Shown one piece after another: positions 4,192 to 26,167 of a DNA stretch of 64,000 nucleotides. The stretch covers positions 21,130 through 85,129 of the forward strand of contig CAZMHH010000001.1 in NCBI GenBank assembly GCA_964566035.1, given 5' to 3'. Source of the stretch: an uncultured Thermodesulfobacteriota bacterium. GTDB taxonomy: Bacteria; Desulfobacterota; WTBG01; CAIYCZ01; CAIRTM01. The notes beneath the pieces were generated by a model. The model saw only the letters and a program-made list of their open reading frames with translations, did not search any database and was not told the DNA's origin. Made by a program: the position numbers and the translations under genes. Numbering within the stretch: the first letter of the stretch is position 1; each line of letters opens with the position of its first letter.

Positions 4192-4208
4192 TGCCCTTAC
4201 TCCTTTTT

Positions 4209-5093
4209 CTATTGATTATATTCTCTAACAGCCCTTGTAAGATACGATATCGTTTTATATCCGTAATGATTCTGACCAGTAAAAATTTGGCTTTGAGCAA
4301 AGCCCAAAAAATAAATATGGCATGCGGCATAGGTAAACTGCTCATATGTTGTTGACGACCAGTAATACCATGATCTTGTATTGGAAAAAAAATCAGTATT
4401 TATTGCCGGATTAAACCGATATCTATTCTGTATTGTTTCAAGCTCATCACATGTTGGCATCCTCCAGTCTGTCCATCCGCCAAAAGCTGACTCATTCACA
4501 GCCTCGATAAATCGCTCGGTATTTTCTCCATCCCCCCATTCTCCTGGGTCTCCACCGTTTGTTTCAGGATTGGCATCATACCATGTATAAACATTATCAG
4601 CATCATGGGGGTTTGAATAATTAATAACATAATCCCTGTCCCGTTTCACTTCCCATAACAAACCTGTTGTTACATCATATACCATTGCCCATTGTGCTGC
4701 ATCCTCATTAAGTTGCTCCCCTCTGTCATCAATTTTTATAAACCGGGAACTGCTGATATTAAGCCTGACTGAATCAGAACCTACAACCTGGTTGTATGAA
4801 TCCGTAACCATAAGGGTGACAATATATTGACCCTTACGATCAAATGAATAAACCATATTATCTGAATTTCCACCAGCACCGTCTCCGAAATCCCATCTGT
4901 ATTTATACCCTGCATCAGAATCACCTTCAAGATATATTTCGCATTCAAAACTGATTAACTCTCCCCCTGAATAAAAAGCATTGTTTAAAGGTGAAATAAT
5001 CCTTACCGTTTGTGTTTCACAGCAACAGCAATACAGACAAAAAAAGGCTGACAAAACAGCAAGTAGTGTGCCTGAGTTTTTTTTAGTGTTCAT
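4209..5093 (-). CDS. Lipoprotein with C-terminal DUF1566 (Lcl C-terminal-like) domain
   Basis: Signal peptide with a Cys-rich lipobox region. C-terminal WRMPT.DEL and YWSST motifs are typical of DUF1566. Confidence 0.45.
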   Translation of the reverse strand: MNTKKNSGTLLAVLSAFFCLYCCCCETQTVRIISPLNNAFYSGGELISFECEIYLEGDSDAGYKYRWDFGDGAGGNSDNMVYSFDRKGQYIVTLMVTDSYNQVVGSDSVRLNISSSRFIKIDDRGEQLNEDAAQWAMVYDVTTGLLWEVKRDRDYVINYSNPHDADNVYTWYDANPETNGGDPGEWGDGENTERFIEAVNESAFGGWTDWRMPTCDELETIQNRYRFNPAINTDFFSNTRSWYYWSSTTYEQFTYAACHIYFLGFAQSQIFTGQNHYGYKTISYLTRAVREYNQ

Positions 5094-5102
5094 TTTAAAA
5101 CC

Positions 5103-5507
5103 TTACTTTAAATAGCCTGAAAAAAACAGAAACTCCACAAATTCAAAATCCATAAACGAAGAGCCTGTTCCAAAGATAAAATCAGCCAACCTGAAACCTG
5201 TAAACATCAGCAGAAGACTTTTCTCTGTTTTATTGTAGTTGGGAGTCGAAAAAACACCTGCGAAACCACCCCCAAAAGGAATATAAGCACCGACCCCTTC
5301 ATATTTATCAATAAGAAACGTCAGGTTTTCATTGAACGAAATTGTTATGGATGAATCAGAAATACCCCTGCCGTAAATAAAAACCTTATATTCATGGCCG
5401 CTAAACTCATTCATTGCTGTCTGAGAATATCCGCTTGGAACCCAAAGCAATAAAATAACAGCTGCTGTAAAAATCCATTTAAAAATAGACATGATTTTAC
5501 TATTCAT
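5103..5507 (-). CDS. Small secreted hypothetical protein
   Basis: Signal peptide present. Tightly spaced with the downstream gene on the same strand. Confidence 0.3.
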   Translation of the reverse strand: MNSKIMSIFKWIFTAAVILLLWVPSGYSQTAMNEFSGHEYKVFIYGRGISDSSITISFNENLTFLIDKYEGVGAYIPFGGGFAGVFSTPNYNKTEKSLLLMFTGFRLADFIFGTGSSFMDFEFVEFLFFSGYLK

Positions 5508-5536
5508 TAAACCTCCAAATATATTTAATATATCGG

Positions 5537-5569
5537 GAGCAGAAAGAGACTGCTCCCGATATTAGACAG
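5537..5569 (-). terminator. Intrinsic terminator hairpin (13-bp perfect stem ATATCGGGAGCAG/CTGCTCCCGATAT) after the cytochrome gene
   Basis: Perfect inverted repeat immediately 3' of the stop at 5573, with an A/T-rich tail. Confidence 0.5.
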
Positions 5570-5572
5570 AAA

Positions 5573-7384
5573 CTATTTTATCAAATCCAGAAAAGAGGGA
5601 CTGTTTAAATCATTTTTAAGGGACAAAAGATCTGAATTAAGAGCATTGCTGCCCAGAAAACTTATAAGAGCCATAAAATCTTCGACAATAGGAATGATTG
5701 TTTTACTTATATCCACATCCTTGCCTTCAAGCAGCATCCTGACATAGGGGGCCGCCTGATACATTGAGGAAAACAGTTTTTCTTTTACAACAGGAAATGC
5801 TACTGAAAGAAAAATAACCTCAGGCGCATGCTTGTAGTAAGCTTTGATATAGGACTTGCCTGCCTGGCTTTTTGCCATTACCTTGTCTCTGTAGGTTCTG
5901 AAAAGAGAAAGAATCTCCTGATTGTCACCTGAAACAAAAGATAATGCACATGGAGACGGTGGATCATCACCTTTTTCAGTTAGGCTGAAATCAACAGTTG
6001 AGGATACACCATCAGATACGTCAACCGTTGCAGTTGCGTTCTGATACCCGGTTTTGCTTACAGTAAGTTTATATTCCATATCTGTTTTTCCGCACACAAC
6101 ACCTGTCATTTTAAAATAACCCTGAGCATCAGTAAATACCAGATATCCGCCTTTGTCTGTTTTCACTGCGGCTCCCTGAACCGGATCGCCTGTTTCCGAA
6201 TCAGCAACATTTCCCTCTATTGAACCGTTTCTTAAATTTCCGTAAATAATTATCTGATTGTTGTCAACATACTGCCACCCACCTTCTGTCCAGTTAAAAT
6301 CTGTTGTTCCTTCAGGAAGTGGACCTACTTTTATAGCAACCGTTGTTCTGGGTGAAGCCCCGGCATTATGATCAGTGTAAATTTCATCCTGATCATATGG
6401 CCATGGTTCATCATCTTTATCCGGTGAGGTTGCCTGTCTGTCAGGATAACCAGGCTTATTCTGAGGGGGTACCACTCTGTACGGGCCACTTCCATCCAGT
6501 TTGTTTTCAGCGTTAAGAAAACCTGGCTCAAGATAAGAATCATTGATTTTATATGCCAATATCAGCCACAAACCGCCATCAACATTAATCGGATCTCCGT
6601 GATTTCGTCCTGCACACATGGGAGCACTGTAATCTACCCAGCCTCCGTTTGCGGCATCAGCTTCCTGGTCATACCAGAAGGTTGCCTCAGGATAGGTATC
6701 ATTAATCCAGTAATTTGACCCGCCCGATTCAAAATCAAAGTTCTGCAGCCAACCGTCCGGAGAATATACCACAACTGTATTGCTGTCAGCTTTTATGCCG
6801 GTCTCCTCAAGAAGGTCTTTTATGATAACACCCGTATAATTGGCATAATAATCATATCCGTCCGTCCCGCCCCTTGCTGTATTCATCAGCATAAACTGTG
6901 AATGGGCAGGCATTGCCTCTATATCCTCCAGATTATAAATAAAATAGGGGGCCGGAACAAGTGATGGATTGTCATCTGGATCACCGGGAAATGTCAAAGC
7001 ATTTATCTCTTCAATATTTGTATATCCGTCACCATCGGAATCCAAGCCTTCAATCTTTCCAAAAGTATCTACCTTAAACCTGCCTGCACTTTTATAATCC
7101 ACTCCATAGCTGTTTAATGTATCAGCTATATCTGTGTAGTCTTCTCCGTAATTTGTTACAATATGACACCACTGACAGTTTCCAACAGGACGCGGTCCCC
7201 GTTTTGTTTCCACCTCTCCGCCAATGTGACACAGGGCACAGTCATCAATCCTTGTTCCAACCTTATCAGGATATGCTTCCTGAAACACAGGACTGTCCAT
7301 CTCGCCCATGTGATGATAAGCCCCGAATGCTGTACCTGACAGCAGCATAAATATAACTGAAACACTTATAAACCATTTCTTCAT
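5573..7384 (-). CDS. Exported di-haem c-type cytochrome domain protein (CALCH, CQWCH) with dockerin/Ca-binding-like DSDGDGYTNIEE motif and carboxypeptidase-regulatory-like domain
   Basis: Signal peptide. Two CxxCH motifs near the N-terminus and a CarboxypepD_reg-like segment (GYFKMTGVV). 26 nt downstream of the porin gene, so probably co-transcribed. Confidence 0.5.
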   Translation of the reverse strand: MKKWFISVSVIFMLLSGTAFGAYHHMGEMDSPVFQEAYPDKVGTRIDDCALCHIGGEVETKRGPRPVGNCQWCHIVTNYGEDYTDIADTLNSYGVDYKSAGRFKVDTFGKIEGLDSDGDGYTNIEEINALTFPGDPDDNPSLVPAPYFIYNLEDIEAMPAHSQFMLMNTARGGTDGYDYYANYTGVIIKDLLEETGIKADSNTVVVYSPDGWLQNFDFESGGSNYWINDTYPEATFWYDQEADAANGGWVDYSAPMCAGRNHGDPINVDGGLWLILAYKINDSYLEPGFLNAENKLDGSGPYRVVPPQNKPGYPDRQATSPDKDDEPWPYDQDEIYTDHNAGASPRTTVAIKVGPLPEGTTDFNWTEGGWQYVDNNQIIIYGNLRNGSIEGNVADSETGDPVQGAAVKTDKGGYLVFTDAQGYFKMTGVVCGKTDMEYKLTVSKTGYQNATATVDVSDGVSSTVDFSLTEKGDDPPSPCALSFVSGDNQEILSLFRTYRDKVMAKSQAGKSYIKAYYKHAPEVIFLSVAFPVVKEKLFSSMYQAAPYVRMLLEGKDVDISKTIIPIVEDFMALISFLGSNALNSDLLSLKNDLNSPSFLDLIK

Positions 7385-7410
7385 TATTACCTCCTTTTTT
7401 TTAGATTACG

Positions 7411-8841
7411 TTAAAATTCAAGCTGAAAACGTGTAATAAAAGAATTTTCAACTGCACGGTAGTAGGAATAACCCTTCCAGCTTGTTCCGAGAAACAAAGG
7501 AGACGAAAATTTTGTCCGGCTGTATTCAAACGTTATTCGCATCATGCTGTTAAGATACCAGTTCAGATTTGCTGTAATTGAATATGCCTGTCTTACGCTG
7601 TAACCTTCATGCACCAGATACTCATAAACAATCCGCTCTGCCTCAAAATCAGCATATCTGAACGCAACCCCGAAGGCCCCCCAGTCTCTCTGTTTGATAT
7701 CAAAGCTTCTCCTTGGTCTTATTTTTTTTAACACACCTCCTTTCATTTCCGGTTTCTCTCCTGTTAACATCAAAAGAAAGCCTGCATACCAGCTTCTGAC
7801 ATAGAAATCAAAAGGGTCTGTATTGGCAAGCTTGACCCCGTCATAGCTGTTCTCAACAAATTCACCCATCAGCAGCAATGGCCCCAGTGTATATGCGGCC
7901 TCAAGACCGTATCTCTGCATACTGTCAACCTGCTGGGTAATATTGAATTTTGCTCTTGCCTGGACAGTAAAAAAGGCTGTTCTGGCAGGGGTTCTTACCT
8001 TGAAATTAAAATCAGAAGTATCAAGCCTTGCATAAGAATACCCGCCGCCCAGATGAAGTCCTCTAAGAAACCAGATATTTGTCTTATAGAATGGTCTTAA
8101 TACAATACGCCCTGTATATTCCTTATCCTTTTTTTGACTTCTTCTCTGAGCATCACGACCGTCTCCGTTAAACATGCCCAGACCGTAATTTACTGTTTCA
8201 CCTAAAAGTTTGCCGTGAAGCATAACCCCAACATCCCGTTCAGGCGTAAGATAGTAGATAAAAGATCTTTCATTAAACGGGAGATATTTATCCGATATGA
8301 GATGTTCCAGGCTAAAAGGTTCCTTGAACTGTCCGACCCTGAGCTGAATTTGCGGAAAATAGTCAAAATTCAAATAAGCATCAATCAGTCTGTTTGAACT
8401 GCCTCCCTCAAGTTCCGCTTCAAGTTTATAGGTAAAGTAATTATAAATCCTGCCCTTTGAAAAAAGCCTTGCCCGCCTGATATCAAAGTCATTTCTCACC
8501 GGATAGCTCTTTCCGAAAACAAGGCTGTCAGCCTGAATGACACCGCCGATAGTTGCTTCAAAGGTTTTATTATCCGTTGCAAAATGGACCCCTTCATCAT
8601 AGAAGATATCAACCTTCTTCTGCCCGTCTTTCAATTTTAAGGTTTCTCTGCTTTGGGCAATCTCCGCACTTTCAGCTCTTTCCTCGTCAAGGATATGCTG
8701 AATATCCCGAACCTGCTCCTCTGTCAAAGCGCCGTTTATCTTTAAATATTCGAGCAGTTTTTCATCAGCAAGGGGACCGGAAAAGACAGAGGAGGGTAAT
8801 AAATATATAGCCAATAATATAGTTAAATAAAGTTTTTTCAA
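7411..8841 (-). CDS. Outer-membrane porin, phosphate-selective porin O/P-like family
   Basis: Signal peptide, beta-strand amphipathic pattern and a C-terminal aromatic residue (…RFQLEF). Preceded by tandem riboswitch-like leaders. Confidence 0.55.
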   Translation of the reverse strand: MKKLYLTILLAIYLLPSSVFSGPLADEKLLEYLKINGALTEEQVRDIQHILDEERAESAEIAQSRETLKLKDGQKKVDIFYDEGVHFATDNKTFEATIGGVIQADSLVFGKSYPVRNDFDIRRARLFSKGRIYNYFTYKLEAELEGGSSNRLIDAYLNFDYFPQIQLRVGQFKEPFSLEHLISDKYLPFNERSFIYYLTPERDVGVMLHGKLLGETVNYGLGMFNGDGRDAQRRSQKKDKEYTGRIVLRPFYKTNIWFLRGLHLGGGYSYARLDTSDFNFKVRTPARTAFFTVQARAKFNITQQVDSMQRYGLEAAYTLGPLLLMGEFVENSYDGVKLANTDPFDFYVRSWYAGFLLMLTGEKPEMKGGVLKKIRPRRSFDIKQRDWGAFGVAFRYADFEAERIVYEYLVHEGYSVRQAYSITANLNWYLNSMMRITFEYSRTKFSSPLFLGTSWKGYSYYRAVENSFITRFQLEF

Positions 8842-8956: not shown

Positions 8957-9120
8957 CAATAAAAAAGCCGGGCTCCTTTTTTTCGGAAAAGAAGACCGGC
9001 TTATATCCAGTCATTTAACTCCTTTCCAAATTCAGGAGGCTAAAAGGCTTTCGCCTCTGCCCTTTCGACCGCGCTCCATAGGCTTAATTTATGCCTTTAG
9101 GAGAAAACAGCTCGGAGTCA
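8957..9120 (-). promoter_or_regulatory. Candidate riboswitch, copy A (aptamer about 9019-9120 plus intrinsic terminator 8957-9002) in the leader of porin gene 7411..8841
   Basis: On the minus strand it reads 5' CUCCGAGCUG…GCGCGGUCGAAAGGGCAGAGGCGAAAGCC…CCUCCUGAAUUUGGAAAGG. The terminator is AAGCCGG…CCGGCUU followed by U6. It is homologous to copies B to E. Confidence 0.5.
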
Positions 9121-9218
9121 GTCATTATTCATTGATGAGACTGCTGTTCATCTCTTGATATTAATGCATCATGTTAATTCCTGTTGCTTTAATGGATTAT
9201 ATACCTGCCCTTATACAA

Positions 9219-9381
9219 ACAAAAAAAGCTACTGCCCTGTCTGGAAAGGCAATAGCTTTTTAAATATGTATATTAAAAGCAGTTTTCCCTTTCCAAACAC
9301 GGGAGGTAAAGCCCTTTCGGATTTTACCCTTTCGGCTGCATTCTCATGGCATAAATTGCTTTAGAGATACCAGCTTGGGAA
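9219..9381 (-). promoter_or_regulatory. Candidate riboswitch, copy B (aptamer about 9285-9381 plus 12-bp terminator 9226-9259 and U7), tandem with and upstream of copy A
   Basis: The minus strand reads UCCCAAGCUGG…GCAGCCGAAAGGGUAAAAUCCGAAAGGGCUUUACCUCCCGUGUUUGGAAAGGG. Then comes the stem AAAGCUAUUGCC/GGCAGUAGCUUU followed by U7. Confidence 0.5.
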
Positions 9382-9452
9382 TTATTTATAATAATGTATA
9401 GCACGTTGAGTTTAAATAGTCAAGTTTTTTTAACTTTTTTTCTGTATTGGCA

Positions 9453-10283
9453 TCATCCTTTATAAATAATAGTGCCAACATGTTCTCCCTCAAGGGCTTT
9501 TGTTAAATTACCCTCTTCAAGCCCGTTGATGATCTGAATACTGTCCATGACCTCGCTGTTCATCAGAATATCCAGACAGGGTCTTTCAATAATCAGGTCG
9601 TCGAAATCTCTCTCAATAAGTTCATTGACGCTAATTGTAGGAATAAATTCAGCACTATCATTTTTTTTTGGATCATCAGAATAAAGCCCATTCTCATCTT
9701 TAACCATTATACACTGTTTTGCTCCGATTAAATTGGCAAGCAGAACAGTACCGGCATCGGTGCGGTGTTGAGGAACTCGTCCGTCTTTTGATGGGATTGA
9801 AAAGAAATCATACGGTGGCATGCCCTGCATCACCGGAATGCAGCCCTCTGCAAAATAAGTATAGAGCCTGATAATCTCATGCTCATCTATGCAGATTCCG
9901 CCATGTGTAGAAAGAAGCATCGACAGCAAAAGCGCATTCTGCTCCGACACAGAGCTTCCAAATTTGGCAATCACGCCTGTAGGCATGCCCATTTCAATTC
10001 CGATGGCATAAATATGCCTGCTGCGGGTCCCTCCCCCTGTTGTAATAAGCATCTTGTGCTTCTTTTTGCACTCGGCAATCTCTTTTATAATCTTAGGCAG
10101 TGCCTTAACCCCCCTGTCACAGATGGACTGCCCGCCTATCTTAAGCACTGTCACATCCGGAAACAGTCTCTGCTGTGGCGAATATTCCAAACCCTTGAGG
10201 AAAGTTTTACTGATAAGGCTTTCTCCCATAAGACGGCTCTTAACATGAAGTCGCCGCCCGTCTTTATCTCGAACAAGTGACAT
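9453..10283 (-). CDS. Amino-acid-kinase-fold protein (UMP kinase / molybdenum-storage-protein MosA/MosB-like)
   Basis: VLKIGGQS motif of the amino acid kinase family. Last gene of the Mo/W transporter operon. Confidence 0.55.
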   Translation of the reverse strand: MSLVRDKDGRRLHVKSRLMGESLISKTFLKGLEYSPQQRLFPDVTVLKIGGQSICDRGVKALPKIIKEIAECKKKHKMLITTGGGTRSRHIYAIGIEMGMPTGVIAKFGSSVSEQNALLLSMLLSTHGGICIDEHEIIRLYTYFAEGCIPVMQGMPPYDFFSIPSKDGRVPQHRTDAGTVLLANLIGAKQCIMVKDENGLYSDDPKKNDSAEFIPTISVNELIERDFDDLIIERPCLDILMNSEVMDSIQIINGLEEGNLTKALEGEHVGTIIYKG

Positions 10284-10314
10284 AGTATATTATCCCTATT
10301 GTTAAATAAACGGC

Positions 10315-10527
10315 TTACTTTTCACTGCAGCCGTCCTTAAGCGGCTCTGCTTTCAAAAACACAAGTTCAGCGCCTACTTCCTGTGCAATGGTCTCAATCT
10401 CTTTTTTTCGGAAATGATCCGCATATACCGAAAGATCCACATCGCTTACGGCAACAATCCGGAAACGGGGCTTTTTCTCCCCCTTGTCAACCTTAAGCCT
10501 CTCTCTGTAAAATATTTTTCCTGCCAT
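10315..10527 (-). CDS. Small hypothetical protein (70 aa)
   Basis: Sits in the operon between the kinase-fold gene and the ABC ATPase. No motif recognised. Confidence 0.3.
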   Translation of the reverse strand: MAGKIFYRERLKVDKGEKKPRFRIVAVSDVDLSVYADHFRKKEIETIAQEVGAELVFLKAEPLKDGCSEK

Positions 10528-10683
10528 AACTGTTCACCTTTCCTTTAATAAGGTTTATATAACTGCTTACATATATAGGCTTAAAGTTATATAATGTCAA
10601 CAGAAAATTTAAATAATGATGGGGCATAAGAAATAAAAATTACCCAAAATACGTACTTTGCCTGTTTACATGGACATATTTAT

Positions 10684-11724
10684 CTACATAGCCCAAAGGG
10701 AGCGAAGTTTAAGAATGCCGTGCACCGTCTGCCCCTGCCGGACATTCAGGGCATCAAAGTGCTGCAGTGCCATCTCAACACGCAGGGATTCGGAATCGAC
10801 CTTCAACAACACATGGACAGACTCGCCTGCTATGCTGATATCCGTGATAACCCCTTCAAACCTGTTGATTGGTGGACCAGGGGCTCTACATCCGGAAATA
10901 TATACATCATAGGGAAGAATCGCCACCCGGTTTACGGGTCTGCCTTCATCAGGTATCAGCAGTTTGATTCCTGCCCATTGAACCTCAACCAGTCCGTTAT
11001 CCAGTGATACACAGCTTTTGCATGTCAGCACATTGGGTTTTTCAAGAAACCCCTGCCCATGAGTCATAGGCGCATGCATGACATCCTCTGTTTTCCCGAC
11101 ACTCTCTATCTTCCCCTCATTAATCACTGCGATGCGATCAGCCAGTTCCCGTGCCTCGGCAAGGTCATGGGTGACAAAAAGCGTGGTCACCCCGAGCTTC
11201 TTCTGCTGTTTCTTAAACTCCTGCCGAAGATACCGGGATGTTCTGAAATCCAGCCCTGAAAACGGTTCATCCAGCAGCAAAATTTCAGGCTTGCACGCAA
11301 CCGCCCTGGCAAGCGCAACCCGCTGTTTCTCTCCGCCACTCAGTTTGTCAGGGTAGCGGTTCCGCAGGGATTCTATCCTGAAAAGCGACAAAAGCTCTTC
11401 TGTCCGGGAAAGATTTTCCTTAAGGTTTTTTTTTGTCGGTTTGAGAGCAAGCATCAGATTCTGTTTGACCGTTAAATGGGGAAAAATCAGTTTATCCTGA
11501 AACACATAGCCCACCCTGCGGCGCTGTGCCGGCAGCCGGTCAACCGGTGTGCCGTAAAACAAAACACTGCCGATGTAAGGGGCAAGCCCTGCCACAACAT
11601 TGAGAAGGGTTGTTTTGCCCGCACCCGATGGACCAACCATTACAAGAAGCTCTCTGTCGGCAATCTCGAGACTTACCCTGTTCAGGACATAGTTGCTGAT
11701 CTCTTTAAACATAATTCCGGACAT
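10684..11724 (-). CDS. modC: ABC transporter ATP-binding protein, molybdate/tungstate type (ModC/WtpC-like) with C-terminal MOP/TOBE domain
   Basis: Walker A GPSGAGKTT, ABC signature LSGGEKQRVALAR, Walker B LLLDEP, and a C-terminal about 130 aa TOBE-like domain. Confidence 0.75.
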   Translation of the reverse strand: MSGIMFKEISNYVLNRVSLEIADRELLVMVGPSGAGKTTLLNVVAGLAPYIGSVLFYGTPVDRLPAQRRRVGYVFQDKLIFPHLTVKQNLMLALKPTKKNLKENLSRTEELLSLFRIESLRNRYPDKLSGGEKQRVALARAVACKPEILLLDEPFSGLDFRTSRYLRQEFKKQQKKLGVTTLFVTHDLAEARELADRIAVINEGKIESVGKTEDVMHAPMTHGQGFLEKPNVLTCKSCVSLDNGLVEVQWAGIKLLIPDEGRPVNRVAILPYDVYISGCRAPGPPINRFEGVITDISIAGESVHVLLKVDSESLRVEMALQHFDALNVRQGQTVHGILKLRSLWAM

Positions 11725-12521
11725 TATACCCCTCCAGCAACAGTCAAAGCATTTTTCCTTGATCTGCCCAGCATTTTAATGATTAGCAGGAGAGCAAACC
11801 CGCTCATCAGAAGCAGCCAGGCACATGCCAGCGCCAGTCCCAATTCACCGCTGCTGATATTGAGATATACTGAAACCGGCAGCGTTGCGGTCTTGAAACG
11901 AGTTGCGCCCGCAACCATCAGCGTAGCGCCAAACTCACCCAGCGCCCTTGCCCAGGCAAGCACAGCGCCGGTTAAAATCCCCTGCCATGCCAGAGGCAGG
12001 GTAATATACATGAAAATCTGCCATCTTTCAAGCCCGAGCGTAAGCCCTGCCATTTCATACCGATCGTTCACCCCCTCAAAAGCAACTTTTGAACTTCTGA
12101 TAACAATCGGAAGACAGATAAATGTCTGCGCAACAATTGCCCCGAGCGGTGTAAACACTACATGAATGCCCAGACGAAAAAGACTTCCCCCCAGCCAGTC
12201 CTGTCCGAATAGAAACAGAAGCCCGATACCCGCAACAAGAGGTGTCATAACCAGCGGCAGATCAAGCAGGGTATCAATAACCGGTTTAAACGGAATTTTA
12301 CGCCGAGCCAGTATGTATGCAGACGGAACACCAAGCAGAAGCGATGCAACCACCGCAGCAAGTGATGTCAGCAGGCTGAGTCTTAAAGCAAAAAGGGTCT
12401 CCTTTGAGCTCAATGCCCTAACGATTTCCACAGGAGAAACATGAAACAGGATTGCCGCAAGCACGCCGCAAACAAACAGTGTAGAAACTATTAAAGGAAT
12501 CACTATTAAAAATCGTTTCAT
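11724..12521 (-). CDS. modB: ABC transporter permease, molybdate/tungstate type (ModB-like)
   Basis: Six-TM profile and EAA-like loop (GATRFKTATLPVSV). The stop overlaps the start of the ATPase gene. Confidence 0.7.
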   Translation of the reverse strand: MKRFLIVIPLIVSTLFVCGVLAAILFHVSPVEIVRALSSKETLFALRLSLLTSLAAVVASLLLGVPSAYILARRKIPFKPVIDTLLDLPLVMTPLVAGIGLLFLFGQDWLGGSLFRLGIHVVFTPLGAIVAQTFICLPIVIRSSKVAFEGVNDRYEMAGLTLGLERWQIFMYITLPLAWQGILTGAVLAWARALGEFGATLMVAGATRFKTATLPVSVYLNISSGELGLALACAWLLLMSGFALLLIIKMLGRSRKNALTVAGGV

Positions 12522-12603
12522 AGATCAAAAGTTAGAAGATGTAAGAAACTATATACGGGTTGTAATGTAAAATAAAATACTGCTTGATAATTAAAATACC
12601 CTG

Positions 12604-13326
12604 TTATGCAGACCTGCTGCAAAACCGCTCCCATCCCATGAGATGCGCCGCTCCGGCTATAGTTGTGCCATAAAAAATAGTCGGTTTTGCTGATAAAAAG
12701 CTGGTGATAGTATCATTGACCAGCACGGTTCCGGTAACAAGCAGAATATCCGCCCATTCAACAGCCTCATCTGTTTTTTCAGGTCCCTCGATAGATATTC
12801 CGAATTTTTCTGTCCCGATATTTTGTTTATCCATATCCAGCACCCGGATGTTGAAGATAGATGAGAGAGATTCAATCATTCGGGGCTGAAATCCAATCTG
12901 TGTTATTTTTACAATTCCATAATGCTCGCTGATATATTTGGTCAGAACATTTGCACACTCCTTCGGAGATTCATCCTTACAATGAACCGTGCCTTCTATC
13001 AAGCCCAGACTTCGCAGCACCGCATTCAGCGTTGCCACAAACAGAGCCCTTCTGAAATTGTTTCGAAGCTCCATTTTTAAGACATCATTGATACTCCCGC
13101 TGAAATCTCCATAATGATCGGTAAATGCCTGCCCGAAAGCCCCTTTGAAATCCGCCTGCATCAGGAATTCTTTGCCCTGCTGCAGTGGAAAATCCTTATC
13201 TTCCGGATCACCTATGGCTTCCTTTATTGTCAATGCCCGCGCGGTAACTGTAATATGTTCATCTGAAAGATTATTCCTTAAACACACTTCCCTCAGTTTT
13301 TGTCTCAGTATTTCATAAATATCCAT
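12604..13326 (-). CDS. DUF364/DUF4213-like Rossmann-like domain protein (putative metal-chelation fold)
   Basis: Paralog of 13604..14380 (…ILLVTGTVLVN…). The likely start is the internal MDIYEIL codon, which has a good RBS. The ORF track extends it to 13356. Confidence 0.45.
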   Translation of the reverse strand: MDIYEILRQKLREVCLRNNLSDEHITVTARALTIKEAIGDPEDKDFPLQQGKEFLMQADFKGAFGQAFTDHYGDFSGSINDVLKMELRNNFRRALFVATLNAVLRSLGLIEGTVHCKDESPKECANVLTKYISEHYGIVKITQIGFQPRMIESLSSIFNIRVLDMDKQNIGTEKFGISIEGPEKTDEAVEWADILLVTGTVLVNDTITSFLSAKPTIFYGTTIAGAAHLMGWERFCSRSA

Positions 13327-13339
13327 AAAATTATTTCCC

Positions 13340-13563
13340 TTCAAGTTAGCTCGCAACTGGTAGCTGGTAATGTAATATAACCTTCGGTTTGCTTCGCATG
13401 TAACCCTGGTGAAACAAAATCATAAAAGGTTTCACAGGACAAGCATGATACATAGCTCATAGTTAAATCAAAACCCTATCGTGGTCGTAATCGTAATCGC
13501 TATCGAAATCGGTATCGGTATCGTTTTATAATGTGTTTCGGTGCGCGCGGCGCAACCTACAAC
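13340..13563. repeat. Composite intergenic repeat block (agctcgcaactggtagctggt; atcgtggtcgtaatcgtaatcg… hexamer-periodic run; GC palindrome ggtgcgcgcggcgcaacc)
   Basis: Sub-motifs recur at 18765-18861 (in reverse orientation), at 24463-24495, and at 30686-30703 (ggtgcgcacggcgcac). Confidence 0.5.
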
Positions 13564-13603
13564 TGCATGTTCCATAAAACAGTGCTGAATGGTGCATCAT
13601 TTT

Positions 13604-14380
13604 TTAGTTGCCCTCCAAAACAAGGTTGACCTTTTTAGAATATTTCATAAAAAACCGTGTGCCGCCCGCCTCACTGACCACACGCAGAATCGCAGGAACA
13701 TCATTAGCCACAACACCTGAAAGATGGGTTATCCCCCGTTTTCTGAAAATACCCGGCACCATCGGTGTAGAAGGACCCAAAACCGCCTTGACCCGGCAGC
13801 CGGATGCATAGTCTGCAAGATGATCAAAGCTTTGGTTGACCAGAGAGGTTGCCGTAATAATTACCACAGAACAGGAAGGCAGGAGTTCACCTGCTTTTTC
13901 TTCAGGATAAAGCCCTTCGGCTCTGGAGATGTTCTTTTCAAAAATAATCAACTCGCCTGCCTGCTGCCGGATGACCGGAACAAGTGGTCCGAAGAAACCG
14001 ACCATGCCGACCCGGTCTTGCTTTGTCAGCGAAACTGCATCCAGAAAATCCCCTTGCAGGCTCTTAAAATCCTGCTGCAGTTTCCTTATTTCATCCGGGG
14101 TATTTAACAGCGCATTTGCAGCCGCCAGTCCGACCCCCCTCTCAAGCATCGACGCCGAAGACATATATGGCAACACATCCCGAACCGGGCTTCCGGCAAC
14201 AGGTCTTTTCCCCTGAAATACTGTACACCCTGTTTCCAGCACATCTCGAACCGTGCCGGCAAGCCCGACACTGCCGGTATCAAGCTGCACAGCCGTATAG
14301 CCCAAGCCGATCCGGACATCTGCAACCTTTATATCACTCGCTTTTTCAAGGGCAGCGGCGGTTACGTCTTCAAGGATCAT
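13604..14380 (-). CDS. DUF364/DUF4213-like Rossmann-like domain protein, first gene after riboswitch copy C
   Basis: Likely start MILEDVT at 14380, with RBS AAAGGGGA. Contains a VIITATSLVN Rossmann-like motif. The ORF track extends it to 14476, into the terminator hairpin. Confidence 0.45.
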   Translation of the reverse strand: MILEDVTAAALEKASDIKVADVRIGLGYTAVQLDTGSVGLAGTVRDVLETGCTVFQGKRPVAGSPVRDVLPYMSSASMLERGVGLAAANALLNTPDEIRKLQQDFKSLQGDFLDAVSLTKQDRVGMVGFFGPLVPVIRQQAGELIIFEKNISRAEGLYPEEKAGELLPSCSVVIITATSLVNQSFDHLADYASGCRVKAVLGPSTPMVPGIFRKRGITHLSGVVANDVPAILRVVSEAGGTRFFMKYSKKVNLVLEGN

Positions 14381-14412: not shown

Positions 14413-14592
14413 AAACAAAAAAAGCCCCTGCCTTATAAATCTGTGGATGAAAAAGGCAGGGGCTTGGCTTAGGCAAAAACCACTGTTGTTTGAGTCCCTA
14501 TCCAACCACGGGAGGCAAAGCCCTTTCGGGTATTGCCCTGTCGGCTGCATTTCATAGACTATTATAGCCGTTAGAACTGACAGCTTTGGGAG
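14413..14592 (-). promoter_or_regulatory. Candidate riboswitch, copy C (aptamer about 14493-14592, 12-bp terminator 14424-14465 plus U-run) in the leader of the DUF364/ModBC operon
   Basis: The minus strand reads CUCCCAAAGCUG…GCAGCCGACAGGGCAAUACCCGAAAGGGCUUUGCCUCCCGUGGUUGGAUAGGGA. Then comes AGCCCCUGCCUU…AAGGCAGGGGCU followed by U7, 30 nt before the RBS. Confidence 0.55.
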
Positions 14593-14675
14593 TTTTTAAT
14601 CATTTTAATACGCTATTTGATTATAATATGATTATCAACATATATTTAACGCTTGACAGATTCATATTTTTAGCA

Positions 14676-14704
14676 TATTATAATCTAATAATAATTACTT
14701 GTCA
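14676..14704 (-). promoter_or_regulatory. Sigma70 consensus promoter (TTGACA-N17-TATAAT) driving the copy-C leader
   Basis: The reverse complement of 14676-14704 is TTGACAagtaattattattagatTATAAT. Confidence 0.5.
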
Positions 14705-14742
14705 ACTCTATTTGTAGTTTTTTTAAAATTAAAAATAATGCA

Positions 14743-15195
14743 GTGATGAAAACAATCAGAGAAGCGTTACATACTATTAAAAAAATCAGGGGATTTAAAA
14801 CTGACGCTGATCTTGCAGAGGATATGGACATATCACTGAACACCATGAGAAGCTGGATTAGAAACGAATCTATTACAAAACAGATCATTGCCTACTGCGC
14901 AAAACATAACATAAGCATTGATGAAACCCTGCTTGATATCCGCATTTTTAACAAAGACCGCTGCGAGCTTTGCGCTGCAAGACTGCAATGCGATGAATAC
15001 CGCAGAGCCACCAGCAATTCGCTGGTCGTTAACGAGGATATGTTCAGCCCCAAAACAATCCTGATCAACACGCATCTGACGGAAAGTATCTCATGGAAAA
15101 TGTTTCAACAGAATATCCTCAAATCAGAATGTGCCTTTGACCTTGAATTGATAGACAGAATACTGATTGAACTGCATCAGACGACTTTGGATTAG
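14743..15195 (+). CDS. Putative HTH protein (phage CI-repressor-like N-terminal HTH)
   Basis: The N-terminal 60 aa resemble the CI-repressor HTH (…DADLAEDMDISLNTMRSWIRN). Divergent from the riboswitch-C promoter. Confidence 0.35.
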   Translation: MMKTIREALHTIKKIRGFKTDADLAEDMDISLNTMRSWIRNESITKQIIAYCAKHNISIDETLLDIRIFNKDRCELCAARLQCDEYRRATSNSLVVNEDMFSPKTILINTHLTESISWKMFQQNILKSECAFDLELIDRILIELHQTTLD

Positions 15196-15275: not shown

Positions 15276-15878
15276 ATGAAAAAAGAGTTGTTTATTTTAG
15301 CGATAATATGGTCCTTGTTATTTGCAATGGGCTGCGATCCCACCTATACTGACACCAGGGACGGACAGGTCTATAAAACTGTAAAAATAGGAAGTCAATG
15401 GTGGATGGCTGAAAACATGAATTACGAAATGGATAACAGTTGGTGCTTTGAAGACGAACAGGGTAACTGCGACACCTATGGCAGGTTATATGCGTTTGAA
15501 ACAGCGCTCACTGCATGCCCTTCAGGATGGCGTCTGCCAGACAATAAAGACTGGAACATCCTAATCGACTATCTGGGAGCCATAGAAACTGCGGGCGGCA
15601 GGATGAAGGCTACAGGAACCCTTCAGGATAGCTCCGGTTACTGGCTAAAACCGAATACAGGAGCCACAAATGAAAGCGGATTTTCAGGTTTGCCGGGTGG
15701 CTCACGCAGCGGCTTTGGACATTTCAACCGGTTGGGAAGCGACGGCTACTGGTGGAGCGCTACAGACAACCAGGGGGGTAGCGCCATACTGTGGCGGCTG
15801 AGTAACAGAAGCAGCAGCATATCCGAGGACAGCTACCTGAAACAATACGGACTTTCTGTGCGCTGCATCAGGAATTAA
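15276..15878 (+). CDS. Lipoprotein with FISUMP domain (paralog of 2736 and 19023)
   Basis: Lipobox LLFAMGC and YGRLYAFETA..CPSGWRLP motifs. Confidence 0.6.
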   Translation: MKKELFILAIIWSLLFAMGCDPTYTDTRDGQVYKTVKIGSQWWMAENMNYEMDNSWCFEDEQGNCDTYGRLYAFETALTACPSGWRLPDNKDWNILIDYLGAIETAGGRMKATGTLQDSSGYWLKPNTGATNESGFSGLPGGSRSGFGHFNRLGSDGYWWSATDNQGGSAILWRLSNRSSSISEDSYLKQYGLSVRCIRN

Positions 15879-15928: not shown

Positions 15929-16744
15929 TTAATGCTTATTTTGTCCAAGCCTCAAAAAACCGAAACTTTCAAACACTGCAACCGCTTCTTCTGATGCAAG
16001 ATACTCCTGCAATGCAGTGGCGGCGTCAATATTTTTTGTAGCTGAAAGCACGGCAGCCGGCACAATCTCTTCATCATAATATTTATCAGCAATCACAATC
16101 ATTGCTACACTCTCACTGAACTGAAAAGCGTCTGCTCGTCCAACAATGGAAGCATCCACAACGCCTTGAGAAACGTACATTGCAAGCTGTTTTACCGTCG
16201 CGCCGTAAACGACAACATTAGCCTCAACCCCCTCCATAATCCCAGCCCGCTGAAGAATGGTCTGAGCAGTTTTCCCAAACGCCATCGCTTGAGAATCACC
16301 CAGCGCCAGTCTAAGTCCGGGCTTTGCCAGATCATGTAGAGATTTAATCTCCCCCTCTTTTGATCTGTTTACAGCAATGACCGGCGTATGCGAAACAACA
16401 GGTTTCCAGCTCACAATTTTGCCCTGCTCATCTAACTGCTGTATATAGATAAATGAACCCGGCAGAAAAACATCACCTGTGCCGGAAACGGTTATTTTTG
16501 TCATCAGTTTCCCGCTCCCGGCATAATCCACTATAACAACGTGCCCTGTTTTTTTCTGAAAAATCTCCATAAGCCGGTCAACCGGATGTCTCAGCCCAGC
16601 CCCGGCATACAGGCGCAACTCCGCGGCAACAGAAGCTGTCGCATTAACCGACAGGTAAAGCATCAAAAGGGCGCAAACACCGGTTAAAATGAATCTTGTC
16701 ATAGGGGCAGCGCCCGACTGTTTTTTTCTAATTTTATTTCTCAT
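15929..16744 (-). CDS. modA: Molybdate/tungstate ABC transporter periplasmic binding protein (ModA/WtpA-like)
   Basis: Signal peptide and PBP type-2 fold motifs (YAGSGKL, GDVFLPG). The likely start is MRNKIRKK with RBS GGAGGA. The ORF track extends it to 16822, overlapping the porin gene. Confidence 0.6.
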   Translation of the reverse strand: MRNKIRKKQSGAAPMTRFILTGVCALLMLYLSVNATASVAAELRLYAGAGLRHPVDRLMEIFQKKTGHVVIVDYAGSGKLMTKITVSGTGDVFLPGSFIYIQQLDEQGKIVSWKPVVSHTPVIAVNRSKEGEIKSLHDLAKPGLRLALGDSQAMAFGKTAQTILQRAGIMEGVEANVVVYGATVKQLAMYVSQGVVDASIVGRADAFQFSESVAMIVIADKYYDEEIVPAAVLSATKNIDAATALQEYLASEEAVAVFESFGFLRLGQNKH

Positions 16745-16776
16745 AGAATACTGTCCTCCATCGTTTACTTGTTCTA

Positions 16777-18216
16777 TCACAGGAGCCCTTTGCTGAACCG
16801 GTATTCCCACTGAACAAAGCACCAGTTTGCCGGTCGATTGGACGCCATTGTTTTGGCAAACGTATCAGGCCAAAACCGCCCGAATCCTGCCATGACCCTG
16901 TTGCCGTACGGCAGTCTGAGCGTTGCGACAACATCAAACTCTTTGCCCACGCTTTTTCCGCTGCTGCCCGTCCTGTCCCGGTATATCTGCTGGTTCAGGT
17001 ACCAGGCATCCTTCCGTTCAGCAAGCATAAACTTATGAAATTCAAATTTTATATCAAGCCACGATGCCGGACTGAGCTCAATATTTGCCTGCAAATCCTG
17101 AAGGTTCATCCAGTGAAACAGATTCATCCTGCCATACATCTGATCCCTTGCGCCAAAGGCGCCATGAAAGGTTCGGCACACCCCGTCATCGGGATTGTCA
17201 TCTCCTGAAGCGTAACTGTATTCTATGCTCAACCGGGGGTTAAACCTCATCGGAAGATTGTATGCCAACATCAGGTGATAACCGTATGCCCTCAGGTTGT
17301 CTTTTGCGAAATCGCCCCGTTCCTGAAGCAGTGTCGCGTCAAAATCAAAACGCTTGATATTTTTGCCGGAAATTCTCACCCCCGCATACCATGAATCAAG
17401 TGCGCCCTGCTTTCGATAAGTAACACGGCTGCCGTCGGGCTGAAGATAGTAACCCTGCTTTTCCCCCCTGTAACGTCGATGATGGTCTCTTTTGGTAAAC
17501 ACCATCGGTTCGACCGATATCTCAAAGGTTTTCTGTAGAACATCATACCTGGCATAAAGACCGATGCTCTCAAATTCATGTCGATGCCTCAGACTGAACC
17601 TTTGGACATCATGGAGCATATTGCGGCCGTAATAGATATCAACAAACCCCCGCTGATGCTTCCATGATATCTTGGCGGCATCCCAAATATAACGCCCTGA
17701 ATTGCCCCACTGACCGGGCCCAAACACCCGGTTGTTGCCGTAGGCGATTAACTGTCTGCCTATTTTAAAACCAAGCCCTGCATCAAATAGATTTTTAACC
17801 TCGATAAATGTCGTATAGAGTTCCCAGTAATCCTTGTTCGGGTTGTTCTCAAATTGATGGGTATTGTTGTAAAACGCTGAATCCGGCAGTGCGCTGCCCC
17901 AGCAGGTGGAATGCTGTCCCCACAGGGCAATATGTATTTTATCGGTCGGATACCAGTCCACCCCCGCCCTGAAGCGTCCCAGCAGAAAACCGTCATCAGT
18001 TTTTCCCCTTGCAGGTCTTTCCCCGTAGTATTTCTGATTGAAATTATCATAAAATTCATACCTCAGCCGGAGATTTGAACTAAATGTGAGTCTCTTTTTT
18101 TCTGTTTCGCATGCGGACTGCTGTTTTGCCTGAAGCAAAGATGAACAGAGCAGCAACATGGCCATTAAAAAAATTACTGAACAGATTTTTTTTACTATAT
18201 TACATTGTGCCTTCAT
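16777..18216 (-). CDS. Outer-membrane beta-barrel porin (alginate-export/putative porin-like), first gene after riboswitch copy D
   Basis: Signal peptide, alternating amphipathic strands, and a C-terminal …RFSKGLL. Immediately upstream of modA-like. Confidence 0.5.
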   Translation of the reverse strand: MKAQCNIVKKICSVIFLMAMLLLCSSLLQAKQQSACETEKKRLTFSSNLRLRYEFYDNFNQKYYGERPARGKTDDGFLLGRFRAGVDWYPTDKIHIALWGQHSTCWGSALPDSAFYNNTHQFENNPNKDYWELYTTFIEVKNLFDAGLGFKIGRQLIAYGNNRVFGPGQWGNSGRYIWDAAKISWKHQRGFVDIYYGRNMLHDVQRFSLRHRHEFESIGLYARYDVLQKTFEISVEPMVFTKRDHHRRYRGEKQGYYLQPDGSRVTYRKQGALDSWYAGVRISGKNIKRFDFDATLLQERGDFAKDNLRAYGYHLMLAYNLPMRFNPRLSIEYSYASGDDNPDDGVCRTFHGAFGARDQMYGRMNLFHWMNLQDLQANIELSPASWLDIKFEFHKFMLAERKDAWYLNQQIYRDRTGSSGKSVGKEFDVVATLRLPYGNRVMAGFGRFWPDTFAKTMASNRPANWCFVQWEYRFSKGLL

Positions 18217-18240
18217 ATTTTTCCTTTATCTTGCCAGATA

Positions 18241-18410
18241 TAAAAAAAAACGCTGCCTTATCTATCGGTGGAAGAACATGGCAACGGCTTTAATAAAAAC
18301 CCCTGTTGCGTGAATCCCTATCCAACCACGGGAGGCAAAGCCCTTTCGGACAAAGCCCTGTCGGCTGCTCCTCATGGGCTGTTATGACCGTTAGAAGAAA
18401 ACAGCTTCAG
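18241..18410 (-). promoter_or_regulatory. Candidate riboswitch, copy D (aptamer about 18313-18410, terminator 18251-18287 plus U9) in the leader of the porin/modA unit
   Basis: Nearly identical to copy C through the CCGACAGGGCUUUGUCCGAAAGGGCUUUGCCUCCCGUGGUUGGAUAGGGA core. A 7-bp stem and U9 lie just before RBS AAAGGAAAAAU-ATG. Confidence 0.55.
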
Positions 18411-18505
18411 AACCTACAATCAGTTTATGCTACTAAAGTATTATATTTTGACTATTAATATCCATATAAAATTCCATTCAGTCACATTATGCTAAATTGT
18501 AATCT

Positions 18506-18534
18506 AATATTAATCACCTGTCAACTCTTTTTTT
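18506..18534 (-). promoter_or_regulatory. Sigma70-like promoter (TTGACA-N17-TACAAT) driving the copy-D leader
   Basis: The reverse complement is TTGACAggtgattaatattagatTACAAT. It lies in the same position as the copy-C promoter within the 250-bp duplicated block. Confidence 0.45.
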
Positions 18535-19022: not shown

Positions 19023-19877
19023 TCAATTTTTGATACACCGCACAGATCCGGCATAAATTTTGTGGGCAATACCCCTGTGAATCTCAGCGTTAAAATAACG
19101 CAGCACCCTGAAATAGGAAAAATCCACACCATTATCGTTCGAACACCACCAGTAACCGTCAATACCAATCCCGTAAAACTCCCCGCCGGGGTAACGTCTG
19201 CCGCCGGGCAGTCCTGAAAACCCGCTTGAGTTGACCCCCGATGTATTGGGGGATTCCCATAGTCCCGTGCCGCCCTGCAGGGTTCCTGCTGCCTTCATCC
19301 TGCCGCCTGCAATACTTTCTCCCCCAAGATAATCTGCCAGCAGGTCCCACTCCACGTCAGACGGCAGGTGCCAGCCTTCAGGACAGGCATCTGTTGCGTT
19401 TTCCCAGTCATAAAGTCTGCCGTAGAGCAGACAGTTATCATCTGTTTCGTCATAGCACCAACTGTTCTGAATGCTGTAATTTAAATTTTCCGCCATCCAG
19501 AGCTGAGACCCGATTCGTATGGTTTTATATGTCCTGTCATCCCTAGGATCGGTCATTTCTCCGTAATCCGGCTCAGGATAAACTATCTGCTCAAAGTTTG
19601 CAATCAGCACCCGGCTGTGGAACACTGTGAAGGTGTAATTCGCATTTGTTGTCAAAATCTGATCATCTTCTGTCCAGGAAACAAACCGATATCCTTCAGA
19701 AGGTATGGCAGACACGCTAATCTCACTTATTCTTTCAAACAGACCGCCGCCCTCTACCCTCCCCCCTTCCTCAGGACGGGCAATAAGGGTAATCTCCAAA
19801 GGCTCATCCGGTTCACAGCCTGATGCAAACAGGAAGAGTGTCAGCAGAATTAAGAATATACAAGACTTGGTTTTCAT
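19023..19877 (-). CDS. Lipoprotein with FISUMP domain (paralog), longer N-terminal region
   Basis: Lipobox LFASGC and YGRLYDWENA..CPEGWHLPS motifs. Confidence 0.6.
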   Translation of the reverse strand: MKTKSCIFLILLTLFLFASGCEPDEPLEITLIARPEEGGRVEGGGLFERISEISVSAIPSEGYRFVSWTEDDQILTTNANYTFTVFHSRVLIANFEQIVYPEPDYGEMTDPRDDRTYKTIRIGSQLWMAENLNYSIQNSWCYDETDDNCLLYGRLYDWENATDACPEGWHLPSDVEWDLLADYLGGESIAGGRMKAAGTLQGGTGLWESPNTSGVNSSGFSGLPGGRRYPGGEFYGIGIDGYWWCSNDNGVDFSYFRVLRYFNAEIHRGIAHKIYAGSVRCIKN

Positions 19878-20492: not shown

Positions 20493-20507
20493 TTACCGAG
20501 ACACCTT

Positions 20508-24451: not shown

Positions 24452-24459
24452 AAACTATC

Positions 24460-24562
24460 CTGATGGTAGCTCGTAGCTCATAGCTCGTAGCTGGTGGCAA
24501 AAGCAAAAAAAAACAACTGCCCCGGACAGCCATTTTATTGGTTCCGGATTGTCCTGGTTAGG
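24460..24562. repeat. Composite intergenic repeat block (gtagctcgtagctcatagctcgtagctggtgg plus R element copy 2)
   Basis: The hexamer-periodic tagctNgtagct run is related to 13345-13372 and 18848-18861. The R element matches 18850-18885 and 30915-30958. Confidence 0.5.
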
Positions 24563-26163: not shown

Positions 26164-26167
26164 TATT

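Follow-up and report, generated by a model that had tools for sequence, protein, structure and literature searches.

We analysed a stretch of 64,000 nucleotides (nt) from an uncultured Thermodesulfobacteriota bacterium (contig CAZMHH010000001.1, assembly GCA_964566035.1), hereafter the window, from whose first position all operon coordinates are counted. On its minus strand, positions 14705 to 9453 carry a consensus promoter, a riboswitch of the molybdenum-cofactor (Moco) class and a terminator, followed by six genes (Table 1). These encode two DUF364 proteins (DUF364a and DUF364b), an ABC permease and its ATPase, a protein of 70 amino acids (aa), and an amino-acid-kinase-fold protein resembling MosB, one of the subunits that make up Azotobacter vinelandii's molybdenum storage protein (MoSto). 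An earlier interpretation made from the letters alone (the sequence-only reading) had given the same gene content, order and strand, and the gene calls of the public record agree, with products of 258, 240 and 70 aa.

Table 1. Features of the operon and of its surroundings in the window, and examples from other genomes (entries beginning with L are loci in those genomes)
Feature	Position	Strand	Details
Upstream unit	15929-18524	-	promoter 18496-18524, P3-less riboswitch 18298-18424, outer-membrane channel, ModA
Alginate_exp-type outer-membrane channel	16777-18216	-	Pfam
ModA binding protein	15929-16822	-	TIGR01256, 101.6 vs 62.5 bits; signal peptide by inspection
Operon promoter TTGACA-17-TATAAT	14677-14705	-	predicted; sigma-70-type, 12/12 consensus, best in 9.9-kb scan
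RF01055 aptamer	14479-14603	-	50.3 bits vs gathering score 36
Terminator hairpin AGCCCCTGCC / GGCAGGGGCT + T7	14417-14464	-	GC-rich, 10 bp; read from sequence
DUF364a	13604-14380	-	258 aa; PF13938 + PF04016; ATG at 14380, after GGGGA ribosome-binding site
DUF364b	12604-13326	-	240 aa; PF04016 at 33 bits
ModB-clade permease (NifC-like clade)	11724-12521	-	TIGR01581, 235.4 bits vs cut-off 210.3
ABC ATPase, ModC/WtpC-like	10684-11724	-	PF00005 1.7e-34; borderline TOBE_2 tail; start overlaps ModB stop
Possible internal promoter TTGACA-17-TATATA	10572-10600	-	by eye, 10/12; weak evidence
70-aa ORF	10315-10527	-	matches no family (Pfam, NCBIfam)
Amino-acid-kinase-fold (MosB-like) protein	9453-10283	-	276 aa; PF00696 3.6e-26
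Tandem aptamers	9270-9392 and 9002-9129	-	82.2 and 52.9 bits
Terminators of tandem aptamers	9223-9261; ~8965-9005	-	strong; weaker
Downstream unit	3379-8841	-	porin, 603-aa, 134-aa, PKD/Lcl_C and TupA-like genes; gaps 9-65 nt
Porin_O_P porin	7411-8841	-	Pfam
603-aa CarboxypepD_reg protein	5573-7384	-	Pfam
TupA-like binding protein	3379-4191	-	Pfam, NCBIfam
Fifth Moco RNA	32391-32513	+	RF01055
TiaS-kinase-like genes, other genomes	L002 9028-9747; L028 8991-9740		55 further loci
603-aa protein homologues, other genomes	L012 4652-6442; L035 7240-8727; L048 11660-13312; L068 3285-5036; L016 34-1335		

A sequence search of PDB with the MosB-like protein returned A. vinelandii MosB with an E-value of 1e-68 over 256 residues and MosA with 3e-44, and in our own alignment it was 46% identical to MosB and 32% to MosA. 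The best UMP kinase in PDB reached 2.4e-10, which is 58 orders of magnitude worse than MosB, and the others were weaker. The NCBIfam models for PyrH stayed below their cut-offs (TIGR02076, 67.5 versus 158.05 bits; TIGR02075, 43.5 versus 243.9 bits), and all NCBIfam models for enzymes of the amino-acid-kinase (AAK) type were far under theirs. One could argue from the shared fold (PF00696), and from the automatic name "uridine kinase" that NCBI gives to relatives which JGI calls "molybdenum storage protein", that we are dealing with an ordinary UMP kinase (PyrH). However, this explanation is effectively refuted by the model and PDB scores and also disagrees with the Mo/W-related genomic context, and we consider its probability negligible. 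Since the protein groups with MoSto subunits and not with PyrH, the cytoplasmic storage function put forward in the sequence-only reading may reasonably be proposed for it.

The nucleotide-site motifs KIGGQS, TGGGTRSRH, RTD.G and VKDE.GLY..DPKK are the same as in MosB and invariant in 25 members of the family, and so is the Met of a GMPPY motif. In the scheme reportedly put forward by Brunle et al. in 2019, the beta subunit of MoSto is the pumping subunit, and its ATP is proposed to drive molybdate through the protein wall past a gate, Met-beta149. We take the GMPPY Met of the MosB-like protein to occupy the position of Met-beta149. In the alignment, the MoSto alpha subunit has AFPPYHHH where the beta subunit and the MosB-like protein have GMPPY. 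The cluster ligands of the alpha subunit are presumably Glu129, His140 and His156, whether covalent or coordinating. At these positions, the MosB-like protein has Asp for Glu129 (Gly in the family consensus), an invariant Tyr143 for His140 and an invariant Asp159 for His156. Covalent bonding of the clusters through His and Glu has been described for MoSto (PMC6294228).

More than 3699 homologues of the MosB-like protein were found, and when one genome for each GTDB species was scanned, a close relative turned up in at least 457 of them. The locus counts given below refer to the 80 best of these, whose six-frame ORFs were searched with the window proteins. Their hosts belong to the Syntrophales, Smithellaceae, Syntrophorhabdales and Desulfobacterales, and cultured ones include Syntrophus buswellii DM-2 and Syntrophorhabdus aromaticivorans UI. 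The MoSto superfamily as a whole is small, with 59 clusters at E<=1e-30 among 1.84 billion representatives at 50% identity. In a neighbour-joining tree of MoSto proteins, which was unrooted and contained no UMP kinase sequences, the window protein formed a clade of its own with the representatives P0083 and P0122 (89% bootstrap). Support for the Azotobacter clades was 98% (beta) and 100% (alpha), and the window clade joined beta in 3% of the replicates. Monophyly of alpha plus beta obtained a bootstrap of 50%, which supports no claim that the single-subunit form is ancestral. No second MoSto paralogue was present within 10 kb on either side in any of the 80 species loci, whole genomes not being searchable; in three sampled MoSto clades (P0123, P0124 and P0126), two kinase-fold genes stand in tandem, as they do in Azotobacter. 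Judged from its sequences, the window clade is a distinct MoSto architecture, made of one beta-like subunit type and a small partner; by analogy with MoSto, it would form a homo-oligomeric cage for ATP-driven storage. A separate observation concerns the 732-aa family representative P0135, which is fused to an apparently membrane-embedded N-terminal region of ∼460 residues and hints at a membrane-tethered form.

The small partner is the 70-aa protein, which starts with MAGKIFYRER and whose gene has the ribosome-binding site AGGAAAGG. Of the 79 species loci with enough upstream sequence, 78 have a homologue of this gene immediately before the MosB-like gene, and the same pair was found in 13 of 13 metagenome loci. 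The sole testable species locus with no small-gene homologue detected before the MosB-like gene is L082 (740-1570). The 70-aa protein has 760 homologous clusters, all annotated as "hypothetical" and covered by no Pfam or NCBIfam model. Its basic N-terminus is invariant (K4, R8, R10, R21, H38), and the AF2 model (pLDDT 80) has a beta-beta-alpha-beta core, for which Foldseek found no significant structural relative in PDB (best E 0.086, TM 0.45, complex I NDUFS4-like chains). We infer that the protein acts as a partner of the cage. Two other ideas about it were discarded. It is no degraded piece of a MoSto subunit, to which it shows no homology (hhalign with the MoSto family, probability 0.06%), and the only candidate for a fusion of the small protein with MoSto among the 50% representatives, P0148, is a weak match that resembles a read-through caused by a frameshift and not a fusion.

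In 57 of 68 testable loci, the small gene is itself directly preceded by a gene for a protein of ∼240 aa that weakly resembles the ATP-using kinase domain of TiaS (TCKD; NCBIfam, 1.5e-6 and 2.9e-6; PDB 3amt and 4rvz, ∼2e-5) and also methanogenesis marker 11. This TiaS-kinase-like gene is absent from the 64-kb window. In L087, a fragment of the same family precedes a gene of the sister clade. The frequent presence of such a third partner bears on another explanation, according to which the MosB-like protein is not a store and acts as an ATP-dependent kinase that activates an oxyanion or a metabolite and feeds cofactor synthesis together with the 70-aa protein and, elsewhere, the TiaS-kinase-like protein. 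The full conservation of the amino-acid-kinase catalytic motifs and the loss of the alpha-type cluster ligands would agree with an enzyme. Brunle et al. are also said to have proposed in 2019 that MoSto phosphorylates molybdate transiently, which would count for the enzyme. However, the 46% identity to the pumping MosB extends over the full length and includes the gate Met, and no known kinase family scores above threshold, so that we find an enzyme of this kind distinctly unlikely.

The sequence-only reading had taken the DUF364 proteins, ModBC and the kinase-fold protein for one module. This arrangement recurs in none of about 100 related loci, and the unit that neighbourhood conservation brings out is the MosB-like gene with the 70-aa gene, which had been left uninterpreted. 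It is therefore conceivable that the genes are juxtaposed without functional coupling, an autonomous cassette of the small gene and the MosB-like gene having landed, with its own promoter, downstream of a DUF364-DUF364-ModBC operon. In the closest relative, the genes that precede the cassette are unrelated ones, and the 156-nt gap before the 70-aa gene contains the motif TTGACA-17-TATATA, which our scan did not list because the last base of its -10 box is not T. Moreover, a riboswitch scan of 17 other loci found no Moco riboswitch beside the cassette in 16, the exception being L012, where it lies upstream of a porin gene. Against juxtaposition, all genes are on the same strand, and the hairpin scan found no terminator-like hairpin between the ModC gene and the 70-aa gene or in the other gaps of the operon (the scan missed the terminator at 14417-14464 owing to its 22-nt loop). 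Mo/W ABC transporter genes also flank the cassette in 32 of the 42 loci of at least 15 kb, so adjacency is the rule, though the partner varies, and in L104, too, the small gene directly follows a ModC-like fragment. We consider juxtaposition unlikely. The base composition does not mark out the storage genes as a recent insertion. Among the 80 loci, TupA-like genes occur in 31, ModA-like genes in 10 and DUF364 genes in 9.

The predicted operon promoter is located 74 nt upstream of the aptamer, and no terminator was found between the stop codon of the MosB-like gene (9453) and the first downstream aptamer. The other four Moco RNAs of the window score 82.2, 66.1, 52.9 and 40.6 bits. All five cover model positions 1-135, and in the cmscan alignments all five have the columns of the P3 hairpin deleted. 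According to Regulski et al. (PMC2408646), P3-less Moco RNAs track the metabolism of the tungsten cofactor (Tuco) and were proposed to be a Tuco-sensing class, and tandem Moco RNAs occur in S. wolfei and G. metallireducens. Some of the related loci in which no riboswitch was found contain a gene for an HTH_17/PBP_like regulator beside the transporter genes. In the window, a near-consensus plus-strand promoter (14653-14705, 11/12) overlaps the minus-strand promoter of the operon back to back and leads to a gene at 14743-15195 (+) for a 150-aa protein with a helix-turn-helix (HTH) of the CI-repressor type, a possible local protein regulator. Further away, transposase-like genes of the HTH_29/HTH_32 type, at 30900-32165 (-) and 33617-34831 (+), flank the fifth riboswitch and a MoCF_biosynth gene (32574-33605).

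The lack of P3 raises the possibility that the machinery is the same but that its physiological metal is tungsten, the protein being a "WSto" for the tungstoenzymes of anaerobes and the riboswitches sensing the tungsten cofactor. The link between P3-less RNAs and Tuco is, however, a correlation and not biochemistry. In related loci, TupA-TupA-TupB-ATPase operons adjoin the module (31 of 80, compared with 10 for ModA-like genes), with the TupA model NF041772 as the only NCBIfam match of the binding proteins, although the TupA-like matches are below the equivalog cut-off (∼250 versus 400 bits). The hosts, which are Syntrophales, Syntrophorhabdales, Smithellaceae and Desulfobacterales, would fit tungsten as well. 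Azotobacter MoSto also stores tungsten (PMC6448029), PDB 2ogx holds tungsten clusters (PMC6294228), and the TOBE protein Tub is the sole tungsten store characterised so far (PMC11980592). On the other hand, the window permease is of the ModB/NifC type and not of the TupB type (63 versus 320 bits), ModA is the nearer binding protein, and the XDH-family enzymes encoded here with XdhC and MocA-like genes classically use Mo. The window is in fact a molybdenum-cofactor island, with XDH-family enzymes, XdhC, YqeC, MocA-like and MoeA-like genes in addition to the five Moco RNAs; the XDH-family, XdhC, YqeC and MocA-like genes lie at 19893-29982, despite the P3-less riboswitches. The indications for the metal diverge: tungsten is favoured by the class of the riboswitches and by the family's Tup neighbourhoods, molybdenum by the ModA and ModB types and the XDH island. 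We regard tungsten as a possibility to be taken seriously, although we would not expect it to prove right.

The sequence-only reading was correct that the operon has no binding-protein gene, as there is none between 14380 and 9453. This reflects where the operon ends, however, because a ModA gene and a TupA-like gene are present in the two flanking units on the same strand, each behind riboswitches of the same class. The TupA-like gene, described before as an orphan, does lack TupBC, but it is the last gene of a riboswitch-gated porin operon. The permease is just under the modB equivalog TIGR02141 (177.8 versus 182.6 bits) and passes TIGR01581 (Mo_ABC_porter, a hypothetical equivalog). The ATPase is below the cut-offs of both WtpC, its best model (249.8 versus 440 bits), and ModC (TIGR02142, 199.3 versus 285 bits), and the MOP domain attributed to it turned out to be a borderline TOBE_2 match (21.5 versus 21 bits), the Mop-type PF03459 being absent. 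CysPTWA uses two binding proteins and, by analogy, one ModBC might serve both ModA and TupA; the pairing of ModBC with either protein is deduced from their neighbouring units.

L012 has, beside the storage module, a series of three tandem riboswitches (7911-8430, minus strand) and then genes for homologues of the porin, the 603-aa and the 134-aa proteins. The riboswitch copies gate the porin homologue (531 bits), and the combination of tandem riboswitches and porin suggests that molybdate or tungstate crosses the outer membrane by a sharply switched route of its own. At least five other genomes also encode a homologue of the 603-aa CarboxypepD_reg protein close to the storage module, and it possibly belongs to the uptake route. 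Three lipoprotein-like paralogues with a Fib_succ_major domain are also encoded in this region, at 2736-3329 (+), 15276-15878 (+) and 19023-19877 (-), one of them wedged between the ModA unit and the operon.

Both DUF364 assignments were upheld by the HMM check, in which Pfam scores above cut-off, hhalign and Foldseek agree. DUF364a is a canonical two-domain DUF4213+DUF364 protein with no signal peptide (PF04016, 1.8e-39, 135.2 bits; PF13938, 3.7e-19, 69.2 bits) and matches PDB 3npg and 3l5o at ∼5e-16 by sequence. In DUF364b, PF04016 reached 33 bits for a cut-off of 23 and PF13938 was not detected, whereas hhalign placed it with the DUF364a family at 96% probability (E 3.7e-9). Its AF2 model (pLDDT 86.3) has 3npg and 3l5o as the only strong PDB matches in Foldseek (E 9e-8), aligned over 237 and ∼200 columns with a probability of 1.00. 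Both proteins therefore fit the same fold, an enolase-N-like domain together with one that is Rossmann-like, but they are not close paralogues, as the sequence-only reading might have implied: BLASTP between them was not significant (E 0.15), and they are very divergent members placed side by side. The subfamily of DUF364b (2106 matches, ∼241 aa) has invariant His115, Cys116, Cys124 and Cys236, in other words a His-Cys-x7-Cys motif and, C-terminally, one more Cys. DUF364a and canonical DUF364 lack the inserted His-Cys...Cys stretch, and the motif is a candidate metal or cluster site.

A link between DUF364 and Mo/W transporters was noted with the first DUF364 structure (PMC2954201), and in Methanococcus maripaludis modABC+DUF364 are cofit with nifH (bioRxiv 10.1101/2024.03.05.583561). 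Homologues of DUF364b are likewise found beside SBP_bac_11-permease-ATPase genes (L089-L091; L018). The family's only biochemistry, from 2026, concerns Streptomyces Orf5, which cyclises methylated S-adenosylmethionine (SAM) to methyl-azetidine-carboxylate (PMC12930334), and the DUF364 family is therefore best regarded as SAM-fold enzymes. Within the transporter operons of L089 (8778-10532) and L090 (7592-9346), there is also a gene for a radical-SAM protein of 584 aa that matches Peripla_BP_2 weakly, which recalls the reported pairing of DUF364 and radical-SAM proteins in the biosynthesis of methyl-azetidine (PMC12930334).

Taken together, we propose, with a probability that we put at roughly 0.55, that this locus is a segment of a cofactor-starvation regulon by which the cell takes up and hoards group-6 oxyanions (molybdate and/or tungstate). 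Pterin cofactor in ample supply would bind the P3-less aptamer, and the hairpin with its U-run would end transcription before DUF364a; when it is scarce, transcription would read through and the six proteins would be made. ModB and the TOBE-bearing ATPase would form an inner-membrane translocator, fed by ModA and possibly TupA from the neighbouring riboswitch units, each co-expressed with an outer-membrane channel. The 276-aa MoSto-family protein would assemble into a hexameric cage of one beta-like subunit type, like its UMP-kinase and MoSto relatives, and would use ATP to drive the imported oxyanion into the cavity as polyoxometalate clusters, with the basic 70-aa protein as stoichiometric partner or lid. 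Sequestration would keep free cytoplasmic oxyanion low and so relieve trans-inhibition of the importer through TOBE. The two DUF364-fold proteins may serve in the cytoplasm as accessory enzymes or may handle the imported metal, which DUF364b may bind through its His/Cys motif.

Several points weigh against this proposal. What is proposed on storage, ATPase activity and oligomeric state is carried over from Azotobacter MoSto, and since the alpha-type cluster ligands are replaced, the cluster chemistry, if any, must on sequence grounds differ from that of Azotobacter. It is not self-evidently logical to induce a store during cofactor starvation. The TiaS-kinase-like gene common in relatives is missing from the window; perhaps the module is incomplete here, or the gene is in another part of the genome. 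The six-gene arrangement was repeated neither in the 80 genome loci and the 13 metagenome loci nor in the closest relative (82% identical), which has a TonB receptor and HicAB upstream instead. Finally, co-transcription of all six genes is deduced from the layout; a 277-nt spacer separates DUF364a from DUF364b and the 156-nt gap with its promoter-like motif precedes the 70-aa gene, so co-transcription is not established. The 277-nt spacer also contains about eight hexamer-periodic GATNNC repeats (13485-13523, minus strand; GATACC GATACC GATTTC GATAGC GATTAC GATTAC GACCAC GATAGG), which cannot be translated, as the GAT frame has a stop just before them and lacks a start codon. A narrower and more speculative version, which we consider rather unlikely as it stands, is that the 70-aa protein and the single beta-like MoSto subunit, mostly with the TiaS-kinase-like protein, are a widespread tungsten polyoxometalate nanocage of strict anaerobes, which is controlled here, along with uptake, by tungsten-cofactor riboswitches.

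MoSto itself, Moco riboswitches including tandem and P3-less ones, and the linkage of DUF364 to transporters are already known. Consequently, the claim of the sequence-only reading that the module is undescribed fails for its DUF364-transporter part (PMC2954201; bioRxiv 10.1101/2024.03.05.583561). It stands for the MoSto form: in a literature search covering few subscription journals, we found no description of a single-subunit-type MoSto, of a 70-aa or TiaS-kinase-like partner, of a wide spread of MoSto in anaerobes beside tungstate transporters or of a riboswitch-led MoSto operon. MoSto has been said to have "no known homologs" (PMC6448029) and called "rare" (PMC3627308), and ATP-dependent cage storage is seen as a trait of some nitrogen fixers (PMC11980592), whereas we find a sister form in at least 457 species-level genomes of anaerobic Deltaproteobacteria. 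Should this form store metal, it would account for the hoarding of a scarce element by tungsten-dependent syntrophs and would offer a simpler, single-subunit cage for work on protein-templated polyoxometalates. If its cargo is tungsten, it would be the first ATP-driven tungsten store, feeding the tungstoenzymes of syntrophic and sulfate-reducing Deltaproteobacteria. The locus also gives defined genetic contexts for DUF364 function, for the ligand of P3-less Moco RNAs and for outer-membrane entry of molybdate and tungstate.

Compared with known systems, the regulatory RNAs resemble the Moco riboswitch RF01055 of the E. coli moaA type in being full length and above the gathering score, with terminator-type platforms and tandem copies, but all five lack P3. 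They control outer-membrane channel genes and an operon with a MoSto-like store, neither of which is among the Moco RNA targets in the part of PMC2408646 available to us, where the word "porin" does not occur. The transporter shares a ModB-clade permease and an ATPase with a C-terminal TOBE-type domain with importers of the ModABC/CysPTWA type that show TOBE trans-inhibition. It differs from ModABC in having no binding-protein gene in its operon, ModA and the TupA-like protein being encoded in flanking units that each include an outer-membrane channel, and in an ATPase under both the ModC and the WtpC equivalog thresholds. The two DUF364 proteins have the fold of Dhaf4260 (3l5o) and PH1506 (3npg) and, like many members, adjoin Mo/W ABC genes; the antibiotic-biosynthesis pathway of Orf5 is not evident here, and the inserted His-Cys...Cys...Cys motif sets DUF364b, but not DUF364a, apart from canonical DUF364. 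With the TOBE-domain molbindins Tub and Mop, the MosB-like protein shares the presumed role of a cytoplasmic molybdate or tungstate reserve (PMC11980592), yet these have an unrelated fold and bind few oxyanions passively, whereas a MoSto-type cage spends ATP to hold ∼100 metal atoms in polyoxometalate form (PMC6448029). The closest counterpart is A. vinelandii MoSto (PDB 2ogx, 4f6t and 6gu5), which belongs to the same amino-acid-kinase fold family, is homologous over the full length and also stands in a context of Mo/W uptake, its beta subunit having the ATP-site motifs and the GMPPY Met in common with the window protein. MoSto is, however, an (alpha-beta)3 heterohexamer encoded by adjacent mosA and mosB, whereas the window clade has one subunit gene, stands apart in the tree (89% bootstrap; joined to Azotobacter beta in only 3% of replicates) and carries invariant Tyr and Asp in place of alpha ligands. 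Azotobacter MoSto has no counterpart of the 70-aa protein that accompanies the window clade (78 of 79 loci), usually with a TiaS-kinase-like protein. Unlike Azotobacter MoSto, the window clade belongs to strict anaerobes with mostly Tup-type neighbours, and its gene in the window sits in a riboswitch-led operon.

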